Virus record (IMG/VR): IMGVR_UViG_2778261300_000002
Location: 1 to 32,996 of that record
Source: a virus
Taxonomy: Duplodnaviria > Heunggongvirae > Uroviricota > Caudoviricetes
Length of the DNA stretch: 32,996 bases
Direction: 5' to 3' (one strand)
In this document: in pieces, positions 13,717 through 22,488 of the stretch
Layout of the letters: every line of letters starts with the position of its first letter
Numbering within the stretch: the first letter of the stretch is position 1
The notes under the pieces: generated by a model
Seen by the model: the letters and a program-made list of their open reading frames with translations, nothing else
What the model was told of the DNA's origin: nothing
The model's database searches: none
Translations under genes and position numbers: made by a program

Positions 13717-13792
13717 TGGAGCGAAGAACAGGAATCGAACCTGCATCATCAACTCAGAAGATTGATGGTAATAGCCATTATACGATCTCCGC
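13717..13792 (-). tRNA. tRNA-Arg(UCU)-like gene with atypical anticodon-stem/variable-loop geometry
   Basis: 76 nt: acceptor GCGGAGA/TCTTCGC, T-arm GCAGG-TTCGATT-CCTGT, anticodon loop CTTCTGA, encoded CCA. Anticodon stem folds as 6 bp with a 3-nt variable loop. The ORF-track peptide MMERRTGIEPA is this tRNA read as protein. Confidence 0.55.
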
Positions 13793-14145: not shown

Positions 14146-14889
14146 TTATTCTTGAGTAACACTTAAACTCATCTCATTGAATGCAGCCATCCTGTAACCT
14201 GCCGGTGTAACACCAAAATAACTCCTGAATACGCTGATAAAATAAGATGTAAAATTATAGCCGCACTGAGCAGCGATTCTGTTGATGGCGCAACGAGATT
14301 GACTCAACAGCATTGCTGCCATTCTCATTCTCTCTGTAAGCAACAACTCACTGAAACAGGTGCCTTCTTCTTTCAGTCTTTTTTTTAACAAACTTTCACT
14401 GATACATAACCGCGAAGACACATCTCTCAGAGTCCAGTTTGCTGCAATGTCCGTACGAAACAATGCACTAAGCCTGTCACTAATATTGCTAATACACGCG
14501 GTCAGAAACGACGAAAACATTTTCTCTGATGAGAAAAACGCCAGACACGAAAAGGAAAGCATTTCCGCTAAATTGTCCGTATGAATCTTTTCCTCACAAA
14601 GATAATCAATCAGGATGCCCATCAATTCTGCCTTGGGAAAACTCACGCAAAGATATCGTGGTATTTGCCGGACTAAAACTACATCCTGTTTTTCGTCTCC
14701 ACACAACAGGTAACGGCTAATTGTCGATTCACTGAGACTTATTCGCCGAAAACATTCCGAAAAGGGCAATAACGATCCAGCTCCCCCCCTGACAAGAAGT
14801 GCACTACCACTTTCAAGAGAGAGCTCTTTTCCTTCAAAGAGCACAACAAACGGGGAATGAACAAAAACAACAGAACAGGCTTCATTCAT
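14146..14889 (-). CDS. AraC-family transcriptional regulator, AppY/EnvY/PatE-like
   Basis: Start at internal Met (MNEACSVVFV...) rather than the ORF-track start at 15042; C-terminal AraC HTH region (...ISESLLKKRLKEEGTCFSELLLTERMRMAAMLLSQSRCAINRIAAQCGYNFTSYFISVFRSYFGVTPAGY) resembles the prophage-encoded AppY family. Confidence 0.8.
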   Translation of the reverse strand: MNEACSVVFVHSPFVVLFEGKELSLESGSALLVRGGAGSLLPFSECFRRISLSESTISRYLLCGDEKQDVVLVRQIPRYLCVSFPKAELMGILIDYLCEEKIHTDNLAEMLSFSCLAFFSSEKMFSSFLTACISNISDRLSALFRTDIAANWTLRDVSSRLCISESLLKKRLKEEGTCFSELLLTERMRMAAMLLSQSRCAINRIAAQCGYNFTSYFISVFRSYFGVTPAGYRMAAFNEMSLSVTQE

Positions 14890-15118
14890 ATCAATTGCCC
14901 TGACATTACTGGTCACAAGATAAGTATATATCGATTTACAAAAATACAAGCCGAAAGACCAGTATTCGCAACCACCAGCACGTTTTATGTTCTCTGCCGT
15001 TTTTCGGACATAAAAAACCCGCTCAATGGCGGGTTGTATCAAAGTTCATGCGCTTGGTTCGCCTCGCGATACAGCTTTGCGAAGCATAGCAAAATTGAAG
15101 CAGTTTATACGTAAGAAA

Positions 15119-15948: not shown

Positions 15949-16547
15949 TACGCAAACTCCAGTAACTGCGCGGCCACATTTTCGACCTGTTCCGGAGAGG
16001 AAAATTTACGGAACAGGATCCAGTTCCACAGCACATTCAGTACAGATTTATAAACCTGCTGAAACTCGGTTTCGTCCATATTCGCAAACGCGATGGATTT
16101 CGCCCTGCGCCCACGGCTACCGTCCGGATAAATATGCTCGGTGTAAAATCCGGCCTGAATGGTTACCCACTCGCGGAAAGCCTCAAATGACTTTAGCAAT
16201 GCCGTATCCCGGGTTCTGCGTATCGCAACGGTATTCAGATATTGCTCTGCGGCTTCGCTCAGAGCTGGCGTATGTTCCCGGCCTACTGACTCGCACAGGT
16301 AATCAACGAATCCTGATACCAGTTCTCGTTCTCGAGGCGTGATCGCCCCACCGATAGGAGTCCAGTAATCGAATCCCAGTTGCAGGAGTTTGAAAAAACG
16401 CTTGTGGAATGCGTAGTTACGCACACGCTTAAAGTCTGCGTGTATCAACTCACCTATTTTGATTTGATGCAAAAAATCGCAACTCTCCGGCGTCGCCGGG
16501 AGAAGTAAACCAGAAGAAGTTTGTTTGACCAGTTGTATATGCGCCAT
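15948..16547 (-). CDS. DUF1367 protein (YbcN-like)
   Basis: 199 aa, MAHIQLVKQTSSGLLLPATPESCDFL...ERELVSGFVDYL...KSIAFANMDETEFQQVYKSVLNVLWNWI... resembles DLP12 YbcN. Confidence 0.8.
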   Translation of the reverse strand: MAHIQLVKQTSSGLLLPATPESCDFLHQIKIGELIHADFKRVRNYAFHKRFFKLLQLGFDYWTPIGGAITPRERELVSGFVDYLCESVGREHTPALSEAAEQYLNTVAIRRTRDTALLKSFEAFREWVTIQAGFYTEHIYPDGSRGRRAKSIAFANMDETEFQQVYKSVLNVLWNWILFRKFSSPEQVENVAAQLLEFA

Positions 16548-16617
16548 CGTTGTTCTCCGCTGGCGCAGTAGAATGGGTGTTCAGCCCGTTTGTAGTATAC
16601 CAGAATTAATGTCACTA

Positions 16618-16830
16618 CTAGCAGGATGCTCTGATTCGCAATTCTTCCGCCAACTTGTCATCACCCATGATGTCGCTCGCCCGCATTGGCAAAAATATTG
16701 CTTTATCTCCTTTACGGTACATTATGGCCCTTTCGCTATCAGGAAAATGGTCCATTTCTACCATTACCGCAAGATCATCACGCCTTATGATCGCGTACTT
16801 ACGCTTAATGGTCGATTTAATATTTTTCAC
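16618..16830 (-). CDS. Hypothetical small protein
   Basis: 70-aa ORF with GTG start preceded by AGGAGG at optimal spacing; no family recognised. Confidence 0.45.
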   Translation of the reverse strand: MKNIKSTIKRKYAIIRRDDLAVMVEMDHFPDSERAIMYRKGDKAIFLPMRASDIMGDDKLAEELRIRASC

Positions 16831-17026
16831 TATGCCTCCTAACTACGAAAGGAAAAGTAAAATGTGCGGTGTATCAAAAAATTAATTTGGCGCGTGAATA
16901 TAACCATTGAAACAGGTTGTTTCACGATCATTTTTTGTTGCTTTTTTGCTCGCGCACATGGACATTTTTTATGCGTTTAGTTTCTAATCCAATAGTTGGT
17001 CGTTTTTTGATTTTGTTTTTTCAGGC

Positions 17027-17049
17027 AACAAAAAACCCGCCGAAGCAGG
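17027..17049 (-). terminator. Rho-independent terminator at the 3' end of the hok-like locus
   Basis: Minus-strand hairpin CCTGC-TTCG-GCGGG followed by TTTTTTGTT. Confidence 0.5.
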
Positions 17050-17139
17050 TTAAGTGCGGTTGCGTTGAAGTCTCCTAGCCAAAGAGTAGCGGTGACAACT
17101 CCCCGCCGATAATCTTAGTTGTTTAATTTCGTAAGCTAA

Positions 17140-17265
17140 CTAGGCTAAAAGATCTATGTTCCCTTGCTTGATGTGCAACTCGCAAGGCGAACCGCGAACC
17201 ATCCAGACCAAAACCAGAATGGTGCAACAAACCACCACCAGACAGAACACATAGTTCCTTCGCAT
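17140..17265 (-). CDS. Hok/Gef-family type I toxin homolog (41 aa, ends at an in-frame TAG; possibly truncated or a pseudogene)
   Basis: Translation MRRNYVFCLVVVCCTILVLVWMVRGSPCELHIKQGNIDLLA has the Hok layout (single TM, then CE-x-[HR]-x-[KR] motif). In-frame TAG is immediately followed by codons for LAYE, the conserved Hok C-terminal motif. Below the 60-aa ORF-track cutoff. Confidence 0.55.
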   Translation of the reverse strand: MRRNYVFCLVVVCCTILVLVWMVRGSPCELHIKQGNIDLLA

Positions 17266-17482
17266 GTATGTTGATTTGAAATTTAGTGGGGAGACATTCC
17301 TGTAGGCAATCTTTGATGGAAACCAGTTAATACTTTATAGTGATATCTCAGATAGTTAAACGCAAGTTAACTTTGTGATTGTTCATATACCCGCATTTTG
17401 TTATAACGAATACTATAGGCAATATGTACTAGACTCATATACAATGACTACATGAGAGCAGGAGAAAAATCTGGAGGTTACG

Positions 17483-17701
17483 ATGGCAAATTTTATACCA
17501 CGCATTTTAGGACTGAAATCAGCCGAAAAGGAAATGCAACTTGCCGAGCGCATCGAAAAATCAGGCGCTACGGAAGTAGAAGTTGTTGGACGCGGTGGTG
17601 TGATAACTTCAAAACAAGCTCTCGCATCATCTGAAACAGTTAAACTTATGAGATTTGAAGCGAAAAAAATAGTCGCTCAAACACCGACTAATAAAGAATA
17701 A
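17483..17701 (+). CDS. Hypothetical small protein (72 aa), first gene of a two-gene cassette
   Basis: ATG at 17483 with GGAGG Shine-Dalgarno 7 nt upstream; stop 2 nt before the next ATG (coupled); AT-rich. Confidence 0.5.
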   Translation: MANFIPRILGLKSAEKEMQLAERIEKSGATEVEVVGRGGVITSKQALASSETVKLMRFEAKKIVAQTPTNKE

Positions 17702-17703
17702 AT

Positions 17704-18468
17704 ATGTTTGCATTCTTGATTATTCCTTTGTTGGTGAGCGGTTTTATTATTATAACCACTCATCCATATCATTTTTACAGATTACATCGTTATGATGGAC
17801 AACTTTTGTATATGAAAGCAGCAAAATACGGACTTTGGTGTCTGATTTGGTCTGTATTTATTGCTTTCGCAATCAAATATTACCTTCCTTCAGTTCATAT
17901 TGTGACTCAAGTCTCACAATCATTGAGTTTAGGAGAAAATTCATATCAAAAAAGAATCACTGTCTGGTTGATCCTTCTTTCGTGTACATCTGTAGTAATT
18001 GCATGGCTGTCAGGTATAATTACGAATTGGTTTACAACTTTTCGTAGCCAAATGATTTATAAACTATTATATAAAAAAGATATAAGTATAGAAGATAGCA
18101 AAGAGTTAGTTAAATTAAGGACATTGCAAGATTTAGTCACCGAAGGATCAATGGATAGTGTTTTTTTTGATTCACTGATAGATAGAAAATCAATTCTGAT
18201 TAGTATGAATAACAAAAAAGTCTATGTCGGAATTGTCAACGCATTAGGAGAGCCAAATGAAAAAGACGGCCCAAACCAGCAAATTTCTATTCTTCCCATT
18301 ATGTCTGGATACCGAGAAAATGATACATTAAATGTATGCTTTACTAATGATTATAACAATATAGAAGATTATGATACAAGTGTTATCATTCCAGTTTCCC
18401 AGATCACTCAAGTTTCATGGTTCACCATTGAAGTTCATGATAAAGTTAATAACAACTGTAAAAGTTAG
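17704..18468 (+). CDS. Hypothetical membrane protein (254 aa; three N-terminal TM helices plus soluble C-terminal domain)
   Basis: Hydrophobic segments FAFLIIPLLVSGFIIITT, LWCLIWSVFIAFAIKYYL, ITVWLILLSCTSVVIAWLSGII; AT-rich; ends at a bidirectional terminator shared with the S8 protease gene. Confidence 0.6.
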   Translation: MFAFLIIPLLVSGFIIITTHPYHFYRLHRYDGQLLYMKAAKYGLWCLIWSVFIAFAIKYYLPSVHIVTQVSQSLSLGENSYQKRITVWLILLSCTSVVIAWLSGIITNWFTTFRSQMIYKLLYKKDISIEDSKELVKLRTLQDLVTEGSMDSVFFDSLIDRKSILISMNNKKVYVGIVNALGEPNEKDGPNQQISILPIMSGYRENDTLNVCFTNDYNNIEDYDTSVIIPVSQITQVSWFTIEVHDKVNNNCKS

Positions 18469-18490
18469 TCAAACTTTATGATTAATTAAC

Positions 18491-18518
18491 AAAAAGAGGC
18501 CTAACGGCCTCTTTATTT
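18491..18518. terminator. Bidirectional rho-independent terminator between convergent genes
   Basis: AAAAA-GAGGCC-TAAC-GGCCTC-TTTATTT; serves the plus-strand membrane protein gene and the minus-strand S8 protease gene. Confidence 0.7.
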
Positions 18519-20772
18519 AGCGTATCTGGATTCTTTCCTCATTACTTACTATTATATCATCACTTTCCCAACCTAATAAATCAAGTTCAGAAACGGCTTC
18601 AGAATAAATATCTTTATCCGCAGATAACGAACGTAAAGTAATCAGCAATACAGCCCGCTGTGGAAACTCAAGTTTATCTTGCTCTGCTCTACGTTGCACA
18701 TCTATTTTTAGTCTCCACGTATTCCCTTGTGTGCCTTGAGGGTACTTTTTCCTATACACTTTTATTGGTGACCATTTAAAACCATTCTCTATGAGATACT
18801 TCTCATATAATTCACTTTTATCCTTTACTTGAGGCACCTTGCTTATGTGTTTTCTTTTTTTTGTTTTATCAAAGTCGTATGTTCCAAAAGAAACATCTAC
18901 ATTAGATCGGCAATATTCTGAAGGGTAGTTCGGATCTAATGGCGGAGAGTAAACAAGAGTCATTAATATCTCTCCTGTAAATTTTCCCTCATCATTTTTT
19001 AAAGAATTAGGGATTACAAATGGATAGCGACCAAACTCTTCACCTTCAAGAGTATTAACTTCAAAAAGAAATGTTATTTCATTTTTCTTACAAGATAACA
19101 TATCTGAAATATTATCTTTTGGAATACCAAAACCATGATAATTTATTTCTTTTGGATCAATTTGATCCGTTCGCTCTAACATCGCTGAATGAATGATTAA
19201 TGCTTTCACTCTTTCCGGTGATGGTGAAATATTGCTATTTAATTGCAGCTCATGCCATGTTGCAGCTGCAATACTTGAGATTAGTGGAGTGGAGAGGCTT
19301 GTACCAACAGATTCCGATAAGTGACCATTATCTCCAATAGCAAATATTCCTAAATCAGAAAAATCAAGATTTGCCCTGCAGTTCCCACCAAAATGAGTAA
19401 CTTCAGGTTTTGGAATACAGGAAGGCCCGGGGCCTCTTCTGGAAAAGGATGATGGTTGGTTTGCTTTTACAATGGAGTCGGCACAATCTACATGTGCAAC
19501 AGATCCCACCGTCAAAGCTCGCACAGAATCCCCCGGAGCGGAAATACGATCACAATCTGATAGCTCCTGAGGCGGCCAAGTGCGTTGCGGTAAAGATTCG
19601 TAATTACCAGATGCAACAACAAAAAGGCATCCATGTTCATCATGCAAATAACTCAACAAATGACCAAGTTCGGAAAAATTATCACTATGGCAGGCTTCTT
19701 TCTGTCCGAGAGATAGATTCCATATTTTTACTTCAGGGAAATCCTCAACAGCTGTTGTAATTATATTCGCAAGTTCTGGTAGTGATAGTTCTGTATCCGC
19801 AGGAAACGCTGCAATATCAACCACCTCCGCATGTGTATTAGGAAACCCTTCGTAGTTTCTATTTAACCCTTTACTATCAATGATTAAACTTGCCACCATA
19901 TTGCCGTGAGTATAATCGGCCTTCCTTCCATTAAGAAAGCTCCTTCTTCCCCATACCCATGGAGAGATATCCCTATTGTTTGGGTCAATACCACTATCTA
20001 TTATCCCTACTAATGGATAATGTGCATCTACATCAGGAATCGGTAATAATGCCTTTTTTTCGGCTGCTGTTTTTGATATTATTGCTTCACTATTATCCAG
20101 CTTAAAAGTGGGCATTGGCTGTAACTTCCTAACACCAATGAAATTTGATAATTCATAAATGTTGTTATTTTCAGGAACTTCAAAATAAAAAATATCATTT
20201 CCAATCGTGTGTTTATTTGGCTCAGGAATATTTAACTCAGCCATCATTAATTTCAATGACTCTTCAAGGGATTTATTTTTCTTCCTATTCCTGTGATCAA
20301 ATAATTTCAAGATATATGTTTTGGCCCCCTCATCTGCTATTCTGTCACAAATGAAGGGTTCGATTTTATCAATAACAGCAATATGGAGCGTACCATTTTT
20401 GGTTTTCGTGCTATTTTGTATTTTAGATTCAAGCCTAGAAAGGCCCTCTTCGGTTACACTTACTAATAATTCACCCAAATTACAACTACCAATTACGGGA
20501 CAGGTTTTGTCTCCAAGCAAACTAGTAGGACGATGTGATTTCGCTAAAGCTTTATCATGCAGAGTAACTTTTGCTACCGCAGGCACTCCCGGCCACTTTC
20601 GGAATGAGTCTCTAAAGTGTTCGGACACACATCTAACTTCATTTTTGAGCCTAGATAATAACTCTTTTGTTACTGGGCGAATGGGTTCCTTTTCAGTAAA
20701 ACCGTAGGTTTTGTCATTAAAATCTTTTGCAAATGTCTTAATGATTTTTATGGGCCTTTCAACTTTGCTCAT
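18517..20772 (-). CDS. S8 subtilase-family serine protease (IetS-like)
   Basis: 751 aa; catalytic triad motifs VGIIDSGID (Asp), HGNMVAS (His), GTSLSTP (Ser); about 240-aa N-terminal and 200-aa C-terminal extensions; AT-rich. Confidence 0.8.
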   Translation of the reverse strand: MSKVERPIKIIKTFAKDFNDKTYGFTEKEPIRPVTKELLSRLKNEVRCVSEHFRDSFRKWPGVPAVAKVTLHDKALAKSHRPTSLLGDKTCPVIGSCNLGELLVSVTEEGLSRLESKIQNSTKTKNGTLHIAVIDKIEPFICDRIADEGAKTYILKLFDHRNRKKNKSLEESLKLMMAELNIPEPNKHTIGNDIFYFEVPENNNIYELSNFIGVRKLQPMPTFKLDNSEAIISKTAAEKKALLPIPDVDAHYPLVGIIDSGIDPNNRDISPWVWGRRSFLNGRKADYTHGNMVASLIIDSKGLNRNYEGFPNTHAEVVDIAAFPADTELSLPELANIITTAVEDFPEVKIWNLSLGQKEACHSDNFSELGHLLSYLHDEHGCLFVVASGNYESLPQRTWPPQELSDCDRISAPGDSVRALTVGSVAHVDCADSIVKANQPSSFSRRGPGPSCIPKPEVTHFGGNCRANLDFSDLGIFAIGDNGHLSESVGTSLSTPLISSIAAATWHELQLNSNISPSPERVKALIIHSAMLERTDQIDPKEINYHGFGIPKDNISDMLSCKKNEITFLFEVNTLEGEEFGRYPFVIPNSLKNDEGKFTGEILMTLVYSPPLDPNYPSEYCRSNVDVSFGTYDFDKTKKRKHISKVPQVKDKSELYEKYLIENGFKWSPIKVYRKKYPQGTQGNTWRLKIDVQRRAEQDKLEFPQRAVLLITLRSLSADKDIYSEAVSELDLLGWESDDIIVSNEERIQIR

Positions 20773-20809
20773 TCATTTTTCCTTTACAATTTTCCAGTTC
20801 TATTTTTAA

Positions 20810-21979
20810 CTAACCCACCTTTGTAGTATCTTGCCTTCTTGAGGATTTACTCTTAGACGTTAACCTAGATACCTTATTTGCTGAAATTGAAAGTAAACTA
20901 GCAATTTTTCTTACTGTAAATACTCTCTCATCACAATTTCTAATTAATTTTGCTAATTTTTCTATTATTTGTTCTGGTTGATCAAACTTCTCTCCTTTAG
21001 ATTCCCAAATAGACATCATAAGAAAAGTTGTATCAAATTTACCATTATTAAATAAAATAGAATGGCGAAGCGCACGCTCGCATATTTGTTCAATAAACGC
21101 ACATGACAAGTCTTTTGAGAGAACAGCGGAGTCATATGCAACATCTAATGTTGGAAAATGCTGATTCAATAATCTTTCATATAGACGTTCTCTCACTTTT
21201 AAATCAGGTAAACCAATTTCGAGTCTGTATGAAAATCTACGCCAAACCGCATTATCTAGTAAATTCTCGTGATTGCTGGCAGATATAAGTACAGTATGTT
21301 CAGGAAGATCATCAATGTTTTGTAACAATGCAACAACAACTCTTTTTAATTCACCCAATTCATGTTGATCATCTCTGGCTTTTGCCAAAGCATCAAGTTC
21401 GTCCAGAAATAGAACGCAAGGTTGATTGCTTGCATACTCAAAAAGAGTGCGTATATTTTTAGCTGTTGAACCTAAATATGACGATACCAACGCATCACAC
21501 CGCGCAGTGAAAAGAGGTAATCTCAACTCAGATGCAATATGCTTAGCTGCAAGAGTTTTGCCACAACCTGGAGGACCAAAAAGTATCATTGAGGATGCAG
21601 CTTTTAATCCATATTTCTTCAGTTCATCTCTTCGTATTACTGATGTAATAAATTCATTAATTTTTTCATTAATCGAGTTATTCAAAATAGGTGGAGCTAC
21701 GTTGATCTCAGGCTCTGTTTTATCTGCCAGATGAAATTTTGTTTCATTATCAGTAGGAACTGAATATGCCTTTGTGGAGAGGCTATTTTGAGTAAAGTTT
21801 GCTTTCTGAAGCGAGAATGTAGTTTCCTGCTTCAAGAAGCTTCGTATTGTTTTCGCGAGTTCGCGCTCACCTTCCGCATCCATCTCTCTTGCAACTTTTG
21901 CTGCAATTCTCTGGAAGGTTATTTTATCGCCTATGACCCCTGACTTTATGAGGTCTACCAATAACTCGCCGTTGTTCAT
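20810..21979 (-). CDS. AAA+ ATPase (IetA-like)
   Basis: Walker A GPPGCGKT, Walker B VLFLDELD, arginine-finger region NAVWRRF. Start set at the ATG giving MNNGELLVDL...; the ORF-track start at 22030 is a TTG. Immediately upstream of the S8 protease gene. Confidence 0.8.
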   Translation of the reverse strand: MNNGELLVDLIKSGVIGDKITFQRIAAKVAREMDAEGERELAKTIRSFLKQETTFSLQKANFTQNSLSTKAYSVPTDNETKFHLADKTEPEINVAPPILNNSINEKINEFITSVIRRDELKKYGLKAASSMILFGPPGCGKTLAAKHIASELRLPLFTARCDALVSSYLGSTAKNIRTLFEYASNQPCVLFLDELDALAKARDDQHELGELKRVVVALLQNIDDLPEHTVLISASNHENLLDNAVWRRFSYRLEIGLPDLKVRERLYERLLNQHFPTLDVAYDSAVLSKDLSCAFIEQICERALRHSILFNNGKFDTTFLMMSIWESKGEKFDQPEQIIEKLAKLIRNCDERVFTVRKIASLLSISANKVSRLTSKSKSSRRQDTTKVG

Positions 21980-22039
21980 GTGATACAAAAATCCCCTAAC
22001 ATAGTTGAAAACCGTGTGATAATGACACAAATCCTGATT

Positions 22040-22488
22040 TTTTCAAAAATATCATTGTAAATATGGAACATCAATACTCACAAAGATACTCAGTTCTACT
22101 TACGTTGCTTTATCCATTCAAGTGCTTTCAATACGGTTTCCATTTCCCCCCTTAAACTCTGTTACCAGCTCCCCGCCTGCTCCAGAAAATTTTGTGTATC
22201 TGGTATCAGCACCAGTTACGGCGGCATTCCTACACTACTGCGGTTATCGGTGGTGTCGGTCTTTCGGTCACCGCTTTGGAGACACAGACTTTTTCCTGCC
22301 AGCTCGGTGCAAGCCAATACTTTTTCCCTTCCCGGCTAAGTCGCCCGTACCGCAGCATGTTCTGAATTAGGTTGTGTATTTTTTGATAGTTACGCCAAGA
22401 GCATCAGCCATCTCGCGGGGGGGGGGATCCCCGTTCTCCAGCAGATACCTGATAGCGGCCTGTTGGTTTTCCTGTTCATACCTCTGAC
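22040..22488 (-). other. Decayed remnant DNA at the island/replication-module junction, containing a G10 homopolymer
   Basis: Only short broken reading frames (e.g. ...EQENQQAAIRYLLENGDPPPREMADALGVTIKKYTT); G10 run at 22417..22426 followed by ATCCCC. Confidence 0.35.

Follow-up and report, generated by a model that had tools for sequence, protein, structure and literature searches.

What is the function of a small gene and a membrane-protein gene which lie as a closely spaced pair in a prophage and converge on the protease gene of an IetAS system? This question is raised by a Caudoviricetes sequence of 32,996 nucleotides (nt) (IMG/VR virus record IMGVR_UViG_2778261300_000002), the whole of which is here called the window and to which all coordinates refer, unless they are given with another locus. 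On its plus strand, gene A (17483-17701) encodes a protein of 72 residues and is followed by gene B (17704-18468), which encodes a predicted inner-membrane protein of 254 residues; on the opposite strand lie the genes for the S8 protease IetS and the AAA+ ATPase IetA. Comparing the pair with loci drawn from one-genome-per-species contigs, IMG/VR, assemblies, phage records and plasmids, we found that A-B is a conserved mobile two-gene accessory module, which temperate phages, conjugative plasmids and genomic islands carry as cargo in Gammaproteobacteria. Our preferred reading, held tentatively and with a probability of roughly 0.4, is that the pair constitutes an autonomous phage-exclusion or abortive-infection (Abi) module, which would follow a RexAB-like or toxin-antitoxin (TA)-like logic with unrelated proteins.

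A and B are real genes and not chance open reading frames (ORFs): both are under purifying selection, with ratios of nonsynonymous to synonymous substitution (dN/dS) in the range of 0.02-0.11 (0.02 for B and 0.05-0.11 for A, each against its orthologues). Each belongs to a phage protein family of 'unknown function', A to phrog_37504 (9.7e-22, residues 1-66, profile of 78 positions) and B to phrog_3630 (1.9e-71, residues 1-252, profile of 274 positions). A reading of this DNA made from the sequence alone (hereafter the sequence-only reading) had described a translationally coupled pair of 72 and 254 residues at 17483-18468, and both ORFs were confirmed. Gene A has a Shine-Dalgarno sequence (GGAGG, 17473-17477, plus strand) 5 nt ahead of its ATG, which is kept in the corresponding locus of a Scandinavium P2-like prophage (L002), and as 2 nt separate the TAA of gene A from the ATG of gene B, translational coupling of the two genes is plausible. 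Upstream of gene A, a consensus scan gave a putative promoter (TAGGCA-18-TACAAT, 17416-17445, plus strand), a pattern match of which the -10-like element (TACAAT; TATAAT in L002) is kept in the alignment with the Scandinavium locus and the -35 element is not. Downstream, folding located the bidirectional terminator which the sequence-only reading had assigned jointly to gene B and the protease gene: a predicted intrinsic terminator hairpin (18493-18514; 9 bp, GC-rich), flanked by an A-run and a T-run, sits in the 48-nt spacer between gene B and the stop codon of IetS and has a folding energy of -17.1 kcal/mol (z = -3.4 versus shuffles), the chance expectation of terminator-like sites in the region being 0.9. 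The AT-rich island was likewise found as described, the GC content being 0.30-0.43 over 17500-22000 versus 0.46-0.56 on either flank.

The pairing is obligate. An A-like ORF of 58-100 residues lies directly upstream of B in every B homolog (about 100 loci), with gaps between the two genes of -10 to +54 nt (-10 to +18 nt in most), and these ORFs have in common a hydrophobic N-terminal segment, a hairpin of the V-V-G-R-G type (variants VTERGG, VNKRGG and VSKRGG) and a C-terminal helix. The loci are spread over Enterobacterales, Vibrio, Shewanella, Methylophaga, Legionellaceae and Pseudomonas. Beside pairs that occur without IetAS, which we call solo pairs, no conserved third gene was found, their downstream neighbours being mutually unrelated. 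Among complete E. coli genomes, 32 of 5,426 contain the pair, distributed over three lineages: two are linked to IetAS (3 and 12 genomes) and one is a solo subtype (17 genomes).

The pair is found in a variety of cargo positions. In Yersinia-type phages (L060, L058) it stands alone in the P2 gpA-portal hotspot, and distant relatives occupy the same hotspot in Salmonella phage SEN5 and Klebsiella phage ST15-OXA48phi14.1. Cronobacter phage phiES15 and a common E. coli prophage hold it between int and attP; it adjoins the endosialidase tailspike gene in K1-type prophages and, on small islands, is placed beside ParE, insertion sequence (IS) elements, integrases or a C5 methylase. Conjugative IncC plasmids carry it as well: in the Salmonella plasmid pSTY1-2010K-1587 (L113, 4791-5789) and about 25 similar plasmids, a pair with a B protein 36% identical to that of the window and an upstream ORF of 68 residues is located between the mer operon or AAA ATPase gene and a DNA methyltransferase gene. 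Two single loci should be mentioned separately. In the Klebsiella phage (L112, 3783-6492) the distant pair is followed, on the same strand, by a 69-residue ORF and a bSEFIR/TIR defence protein (PADLOC, 7e-103), and the four genes may form an operon; the B-like protein of this phage is a true distant homolog of B (hhalign E = 7e-28), and its link to TIR/bSEFIR is one of adjacency only. In Pseudomonas putida 700447 (L014, 7031-9998), a pair with a B protein 32% identical to that of the window is convergent to a gene for a caspase-like Peptidase_C14 (PADLOC 'caspase', 2e-11), accompanied by a 623-residue protein without family; the geometry is the convergent one seen with IetAS and, in one locus, could be a coincidence.

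The P2 hotspots are a reservoir of anti-phage systems, and they carry non-defence cargo too, for example partition systems and toxins (Rousset 2022, PMC9122126). The pair itself is listed in Table S5B of that study as 'system #57' (no Pfam, 75 occurrences, '2 TM in protein 1'), and a distant single B-like protein is listed as '#43' (93 occurrences). Representatives of #57 carry the motifs LHRYDGQ, SGYRDKD and VVGRG, and both proteins are homologous to those of the window and stand in the same order. The E. coli P2-type cassette (L036/L038), the proteins of which are 53-55% identical to their window counterparts, has an A protein identical to protein 2, and protein 1 is the orthologue of B (about 55% identical to window B). 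Neither #57 nor #43 was found in the accessible portion of the cloned-systems Table S2 and, as far as that portion goes, #57 was apparently only catalogued, not cloned or tested. The AC1 system ('2TM + 1TM + TIR') of the same study was considered as a relative and set aside, the motifs of the A-B family not being found in that portion of the table. The sequence-only reading had placed the pair among candidate novel defence systems. Its expectation of further defence-island contexts agrees with what we see, since the pair recurs in many accessory and defence settings, the experimentally defined P2 anti-phage hotspot included; its claim of novelty stands in so far as no characterised system was matched and has to be qualified in so far as the pair had already been listed, without annotation, as #57.

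Is the pair then independent of the protease and ATPase genes next to it, or functionally linked to them, as the sequence-only reading had left open? Both turned out to apply, the pair being autonomous in most lineages and, in the lineage of the window, part of a co-inherited cassette with a divergent IetAS. IetS (18517-20772, minus strand), the S8 protease and toxin component of IetAS, is matched over its full length by PADLOC (1.2e-270) and by Pfam Peptidase_S8, and it adjoins an AAA+ ATPase of the IetA profile (20810-21979, minus strand; PADLOC 2.3e-131, likewise full length, and Pfam AAA), an arrangement which identifies the two as IetAS (Gao_Iet). The ORF of IetA opens at a TTG at 22030, the PADLOC alignment begins at residue 19 and the PGAP start is at 21979 (389 residues, L001); the ATG at 21979 is likely to be the start and the shorter form the product. 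As both proteins stay below the NCBIfam equivalog cut-offs (IteS_antiphage, 796 versus 900 bits; IteA_antiphage, 389 versus 510 bits), they represent a divergent IetAS subfamily, and the closest proteins named 'IteS' are about 42% identical to window IetS. IetAS was reportedly presented as a defence system by Gao in 2020 and, before that, as a TA system by Yamamoto in 2009.

Together, A, B, IetS and IetA make up a cassette of 4.7 kb (17373-22073), delimited by a blastn block, by low GC and by co-divergence. Compared with the Scandinavium P2-like prophage (L002, 5670-10361), the cassette is one continuous blastn block with 76.7% identity over 4,718 nt, and the similarity ends sharply, about 110 nt ahead of A and about 90 nt ahead of the start of IetA. 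The spacer between B and IetS measures 33-50 nt and contains a hairpin in each of the six cassette types compared, the sequence of the hairpin differing between types. The linkage follows the relatedness of B with a clean split: all 10 distinct B types at least 52% identical to window B (28 loci) are followed, 33-50 nt downstream, by IetS-IetA in convergent orientation, and none of those at most 48% identical has such a neighbour. A neighbour-joining tree of 53 distinct B proteins unites the 10 linked ones in a single clade that contains no other sequence, the other 43 being without IetAS nearby. The hosts of the linked block are diverse (at least five different backgrounds), comprising the Rac-like lambdoid prophage of the window, P2/186-like hotspots in Escherichia, Enterobacter/Citrobacter, Scandinavium, Rahnella and Yersinia, a Pectobacterium island beside cpxAR and a Providencia integrase island. 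When the matrices of pairwise identity for A, B, IetS and IetA are compared over the 10 cassette types, they correlate with r = 0.94-0.99, and the correlation of B with IetS (r = 0.989) is above that of IetS with IetA (r = 0.960). Among the complete E. coli genomes, those with a linked subtype are exactly those with the matching IetAS subtype (15 of 15, in both directions). From the identity split, the monophyly of the linked clade and the co-divergence it follows that the association of A-B with IetAS arose once and was then inherited and transferred as one unit.

The linkage was also followed from the side of IetAS. An HMM (hidden Markov model) search gave no B-like ORF downstream of IetS homologs at 57%, 49% and 44% identity, and these three loci define the limit on this side, the IMG/VR patterns being clade-specific and returning only six known loci. 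The first of them, a JGI metagenome contig of 4.9 kb (L099), has the closest IetAS relative outside the linked clade and no A-B downstream. Nor is the pair present in those rows of the P2-hotspot catalogue which list canonical 'ietAS (Gao et al.)' (Rousset 2022). As IetAS occurs without A-B, the pair is not a core component of IetAS, and each half is self-sufficient elsewhere.

It is nevertheless conceivable, though on balance rather unlikely, that in the clade of the window A-B has become a working part of an extended, four-component IetAS, as membrane effector, membrane-sited sensor or protease substrate: IetS could cleave A or the linker of B and thereby open B, or A-B could report the entry of a phage genome to IetA or IetS. 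The complete linkage within one clade, the passage of the block through different backgrounds, the sharp common ends and the co-divergence, which is tighter between B and IetS than between IetS and IetA, speak for such a system, and the Pseudomonas pair facing a caspase-like C14 gene would add a second protease partner. There is also precedent in that IetAS recruits an additional essential gene in IetHAS, its mechanism still being called unknown in 2026 (PMC13069673), and in that IetAS, weak by itself, acts in synergy with the membrane system Zorya II (bioRxiv 2022.08.21.504612). Monophyly of the linked clade, however, means a single origin, and the persistence of the linkage may reflect only physical proximity over 48 nt. 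The two halves are convergent with separate promoters and hence not one operon; both are complete and found alone elsewhere, and the catalogue of P2 hotspots curated them as separate systems (Rousset 2022). Moreover, the alignment of window IetS with canonical IetS runs over the whole length of both (99-100% coverage), so that nothing is apparently missing that A-B would supply. A more specific version, in which A-B is the missing membrane arm of IetAS and an A-gated, Sm-like ring of B either senses genome entry and licenses IetS or is cleaved by IetS to a lethal pore, is to be regarded as unlikely.

Kyte-Doolittle hydropathy gives three hydrophobic spans in B (about residues 1-22, 39-64 and 84-108), in agreement with the three N-terminal transmembrane (TM) helices of the sequence-only reading, and the distribution of Lys and Arg (four in loop 1, nine just past TM3) predicts an N-out/C-in topology. 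The charged C-terminal domain, which had been put at roughly 140 residues, comprises 146 and is acidic (isoelectric point, pI, 4.8). An AlphaFold2 (AF2) model built on 39 sequences (mean predicted local distance difference test score, pLDDT, 81) shows three long helices, linker helices at 129-145 and 149-160 and a six-stranded small barrel at 164-239. In the model, the strongly bent barrel and the helix in front of it superpose on Hfq and LSm proteins, as expected of the Sm/LSm fold with its five or six strands; accordingly, B is an N-out/C-in three-helix inner-membrane protein, the cytoplasmic end of which forms a predicted Sm-like barrel. Three parts can be distinguished along the gene (all plus strand): TM1 and the cytoplasmic loop 1 (residues 1-43, 17704-17832) with the motifs LLIIPLLVSG and RLHRYDGQLLY, delimited by conservation; TM2, periplasmic loop and TM3 (residues 44-108, 17833-18027), assigned from hydropathy and charge, with helices 32-60 and 80-123 in the model; and the modelled cytoplasmic Sm/LSm-like domain (residues 149-240, 18148-18423) with the motifs KVYVG, GEPNE and SGYR. 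The first and the last of these are the best conserved. Residues 1-43 reach a mean majority fraction of 0.73-0.76 versus 0.37-0.46 for TM2, TM3 and the linker, and of the 14 columns which are invariant in 39 sequences (with identities down to 27%), eight fall into TM1 and loop 1 (S12, G13, L27, H28, R29, G32, Q33 and L35).

This architecture opens the way to a function outside defence, in lysogenic conversion or host physiology, with B as an ion or osmolyte channel or as a membrane-tethered factor binding RNA or another ligand. With its three TM helices and an Sm-like beta domain behind them, B recalls MscS, Sm-like domains classically bind RNA, and the hotspots hold non-defence cargo, no defence model being matched by either protein. 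We nonetheless consider this explanation improbable. Neither Pfam MS_channel nor LSM or Hfq matches B at E<=1, and a search of the PDB with the profile of the B family gave no sequence relative. The spread is patchy (32 of the 5,426 E. coli genomes, in three lineages), and the pair is always found in mobile or variable AT-rich DNA and often beside defence or TA genes, which is the pattern of conflict systems.

The conserved membrane segment could also be taken to mean that B is a superinfection-exclusion protein, which blocks the injection of DNA at the inner membrane without killing, and that A is its assembly or regulatory partner. P22 SieA, T4 Imm and HK97 gp15 would be the comparators. B is predicted to be an inner-membrane protein, is encoded by a prophage in a moron slot with its own terminator, and the conserved TM1 and loop 1 would fit the binding of some conserved membrane component, of host or phage, that serves the entry of the genome. 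This would leave unexplained, however, why there is an obligate cytoplasmic partner as well as a large cytoplasmic Sm-like domain; to our knowledge, the known superinfection-exclusion proteins are single genes. As no Pfam match to SieB, Imm or other exclusion families was obtained, and as the family is also found on plasmids and on non-phage islands in Vibrio, Pseudomonas and Legionellaceae, pure exclusion seems decidedly unlikely.

Protein A is basic (pI 9.5) and soluble. Its N-terminal segment has the pattern h-x-x-h-FG-L, a beta-hairpin with the motif V-V-G-R-G follows at residues 34-38, and the C-terminus is a helix. Its structure model is weak (pLDDT 53, from a shallow alignment), and the fold cannot be judged from it. 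No Pfam family matched A at E<=1, nor any of 26 A homologs at the same threshold, and the profile of the A family has no sequence relative in the PDB. Two assignments of A were considered and rejected: DusC, with a 13-bit NCBIfam match against a cut-off of 395 bits, is not credible, and a swapped-hairpin antitoxin of the AbrB/MazE type, brought to mind by the VVGRGgV hairpin, found no backing in Pfam (no SpoVT/AbrB or other antitoxin family among the 26 homologs) or in the PDB.

These results also bear on the idea that A-B is an addiction module of the TA type, in which B would be a membrane toxin and A a labile antitoxin, and which would stabilise its carrier element without a direct anti-phage role. 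In layout, with a small first gene closely coupled to a larger second one, the pair is typical of type II TA systems; pairs are found on conjugative IncC plasmids, next to ParE and, in the window, beside a Hok/Gef gene, and IetAS itself entered the literature as a TA system that stabilises plasmids (cited in PMC13069673). Against this, A has no recognisable antitoxin fold, matching neither SpoVT/AbrB nor ribbon-helix-helix, helix-turn-helix, Phd or other Pfam families, and known membrane toxins, Hok and TisB for example, are much smaller and simpler than B. That TM1/loop 1 and the Sm-like barrel are so extremely conserved suggests that B has a specific partner or ligand and does not simply damage the membrane. 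A mere addiction role is thus not likely. Many TA systems double as Abi systems, though, and in this respect the explanation overlaps with our preferred one.

How, then, might an autonomous phage-exclusion or Abi module of this kind work? The pair would be expressed from the prophage in the lysogen, from its own promoter and up to its own terminator, and would shield the host or the prophage from other phages. B could oligomerise through its Sm-like domain into a ring, in the manner of Sm proteins, Hfq and the beta domains of MscS, so that 3 x n TM helices would come to lie in the inner membrane. Protein A, small and basic, might bind to the acidic cytoplasmic face of B and either keep B inactive or relay a cue. 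As a trigger, an infection signal could remove or alter A, or the Sm/WYL-like barrel could bind a ligand or nucleic acid; B would then perturb the membrane by depolarisation or leakage, or block genome entry, and the infection would be aborted. IetAS and A-B would, on this account, be two self-sufficient systems packaged together. The reading draws its support from the obligate pairing, the purifying selection, the cargo locations, the separate curation as #57 and the occurrence of each half alone. Several points weigh against it. Location in a hotspot is guilt by association only, and hotspots hold non-defence cargo also; oligomerisation of B and formation of a pore are extrapolations from the predicted fold, and the putative interaction of A and B is drawn only from gene order and opposite charge, with a model of A that reaches a pLDDT of 53. 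PADLOC has no model for A or B, apart from a spurious match to HEC-01B, and a literature search by protein accession, motif and keyword gave no report of anti-phage activity, toxicity or membrane action in the family. Finally, the co-inheritance with IetAS is strict in the clade of the window, and the pair could, in this clade, be other than autonomous.

The spurious match just mentioned (13.8 bits, partial, E = 0.009) was rejected, since HEC-01B has a TOPRIM domain and an ABC ATPase as its partner (bioRxiv 2024.01.29.577857), while the matched stretch of B is the Sm-like barrel and B has no ABC ATPase partner. Otherwise the sequence-only reading, which had recognised no family for either protein, was right: Pfam gave 0 families for A and B at E<=1, NCBIfam nothing credible, and only the two PHROGs labelled 'unknown function' remained. 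In particular, there was no Pfam family match to RexB, SieB, Imm or Abi/CAAX and no relevant PADLOC family for A or B, and across the Pfam, NCBIfam, PADLOC, PHROG, fold and PDB searches no homology to a characterised non-defence function was found. A fold search of BFVD with B returned only unnamed Sm-like viral proteins. The family itself is large. An indexed search gave 112 B homologs, every one labelled 'hypothetical', and an exhaustive profile search gave 2,689 representative clusters (at 50% identity) at E<=1e-3, of which 1,416 reach E<=1e-10; among the best 150 of the 2,689, most are 200-350 residues long and matched across most of the profile. PGAP labels A and B 'hypothetical protein' in all carrier E. 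coli genomes.

The prophage around the cassette is Rac-like and lambdoid, with recET, kilR, replication genes of the ydaSTUV type, a nin region with DUF1367, DUF1364 and a Q-like gene, lysis genes and a terminase. Just upstream of gene A and divergent from it, a 41-residue ORF (17140-17265, minus strand) encodes a membrane toxin of the Hok/Gef family, named after the PGAP annotation of the identical locus in E. coli ZYB62; it lies outside the cassette edge at 17373 and is confined to loci of the window type, being present in L001 and L037 and absent from the other cassette types. A search of 16500-18800 with Rfam detected no Sok, hok leader or other RNA at E<=0.1. Between the hok gene and the DUF1367 gene of the nin region lies an ORF of 70 residues (16618-16830, minus strand), which matches the family phrog_1813 (7e-29; 'unknown function'). 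A moron-like ORF of 298 residues (14146-15042, minus strand; GC content 0.42) is situated between the Q-like antiterminator region and a tRNA gene, PGAP giving it a shorter span (744 bp) and the name 'helix-turn-helix domain-containing protein'. The tRNA gene, a tRNA-Arg with the anticodon TCT (13717-13792, minus strand), stands within the prophage between an AraC-type helix-turn-helix gene and the lysis cassette; rare-codon tRNAs are often carried by lambdoid phages.

Should A-B prove to be an anti-phage or Abi module, a new protein family of about 2,700 clusters at 50% identity, which has no Pfam, PADLOC or NCBIfam model, would be added to bacterial immunity. Tools for finding defence systems miss the pair, which appears as two consecutive hypothetical proteins in each genome examined. 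An Sm-like ring tethered to the inner membrane, together with a partner of 60-100 residues, would also be an unusual effector design. The clade-specific, co-diverging link offers an experimental handle on the mechanism of IetAS: the natural cassette of 4.7 kb can be dissected gene by gene, and the B family members without IetAS provide a built-in control for the link. If the four genes do act as one system, A-B would be the first target or effector for the IetAS family and would stand for a new, widespread class of membrane-anchored Sm-ring effectors.

With respect to known systems, the layout of a small soluble protein and a membrane protein in a prophage cargo slot is familiar, and the proteins match no characterised system. 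The closest relation is to #57, which is the same gene family and likewise stands next to IetAS, there in the P2 gpA-portal hotspot. In the catalogue it is one row, with no link to IetAS drawn, and the copy in the window is of another subtype (55% identity) and resides in a Rac-like lambdoid prophage instead of a P2-like phage. IetAS and IetHAS are, with IetAS as the physical and co-inherited neighbour in the clade of the window, related to the pair by linkage and not by descent: neither A nor B has homology to IetA, IetS or IetH, the two halves are convergent and not co-transcribed, canonical IetAS is missing A-B, and in most lineages A-B does without IetAS.

A functional analogy is provided by RexA and RexB of phage lambda, an Abi system with a cytoplasmic sensor and a polytopic inner-membrane effector. 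Like A-B, it occupies an accessory slot of a prophage and combines two genes, one for a soluble protein and one for a multi-pass inner-membrane protein; its transcription is independent of the lytic genes, the logic we propose for A-B as well. It differs in gene order and in its proteins, as A and B have no match to Pfam RexA or RexB; A has 72 residues versus about 280 in RexA, and B has three TM helices and an Sm-like domain, whereas RexB has four TM helices and no such domain. With the small barrels of the Sm/LSm/Hfq and WYL proteins, the predicted domain of B shares 8-20% sequence identity and no Pfam LSM, Hfq or WYL match; its motifs KVYVG, GEPNE and SGYR differ from the Sm1 and Sm2 motifs, and it is membrane-tethered, unlike any of the relatives compared. 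In the order of its parts, three TM helices and then a cytoplasmic Sm-like beta domain, B resembles MscS, the beta domain of which builds a heptameric ring.

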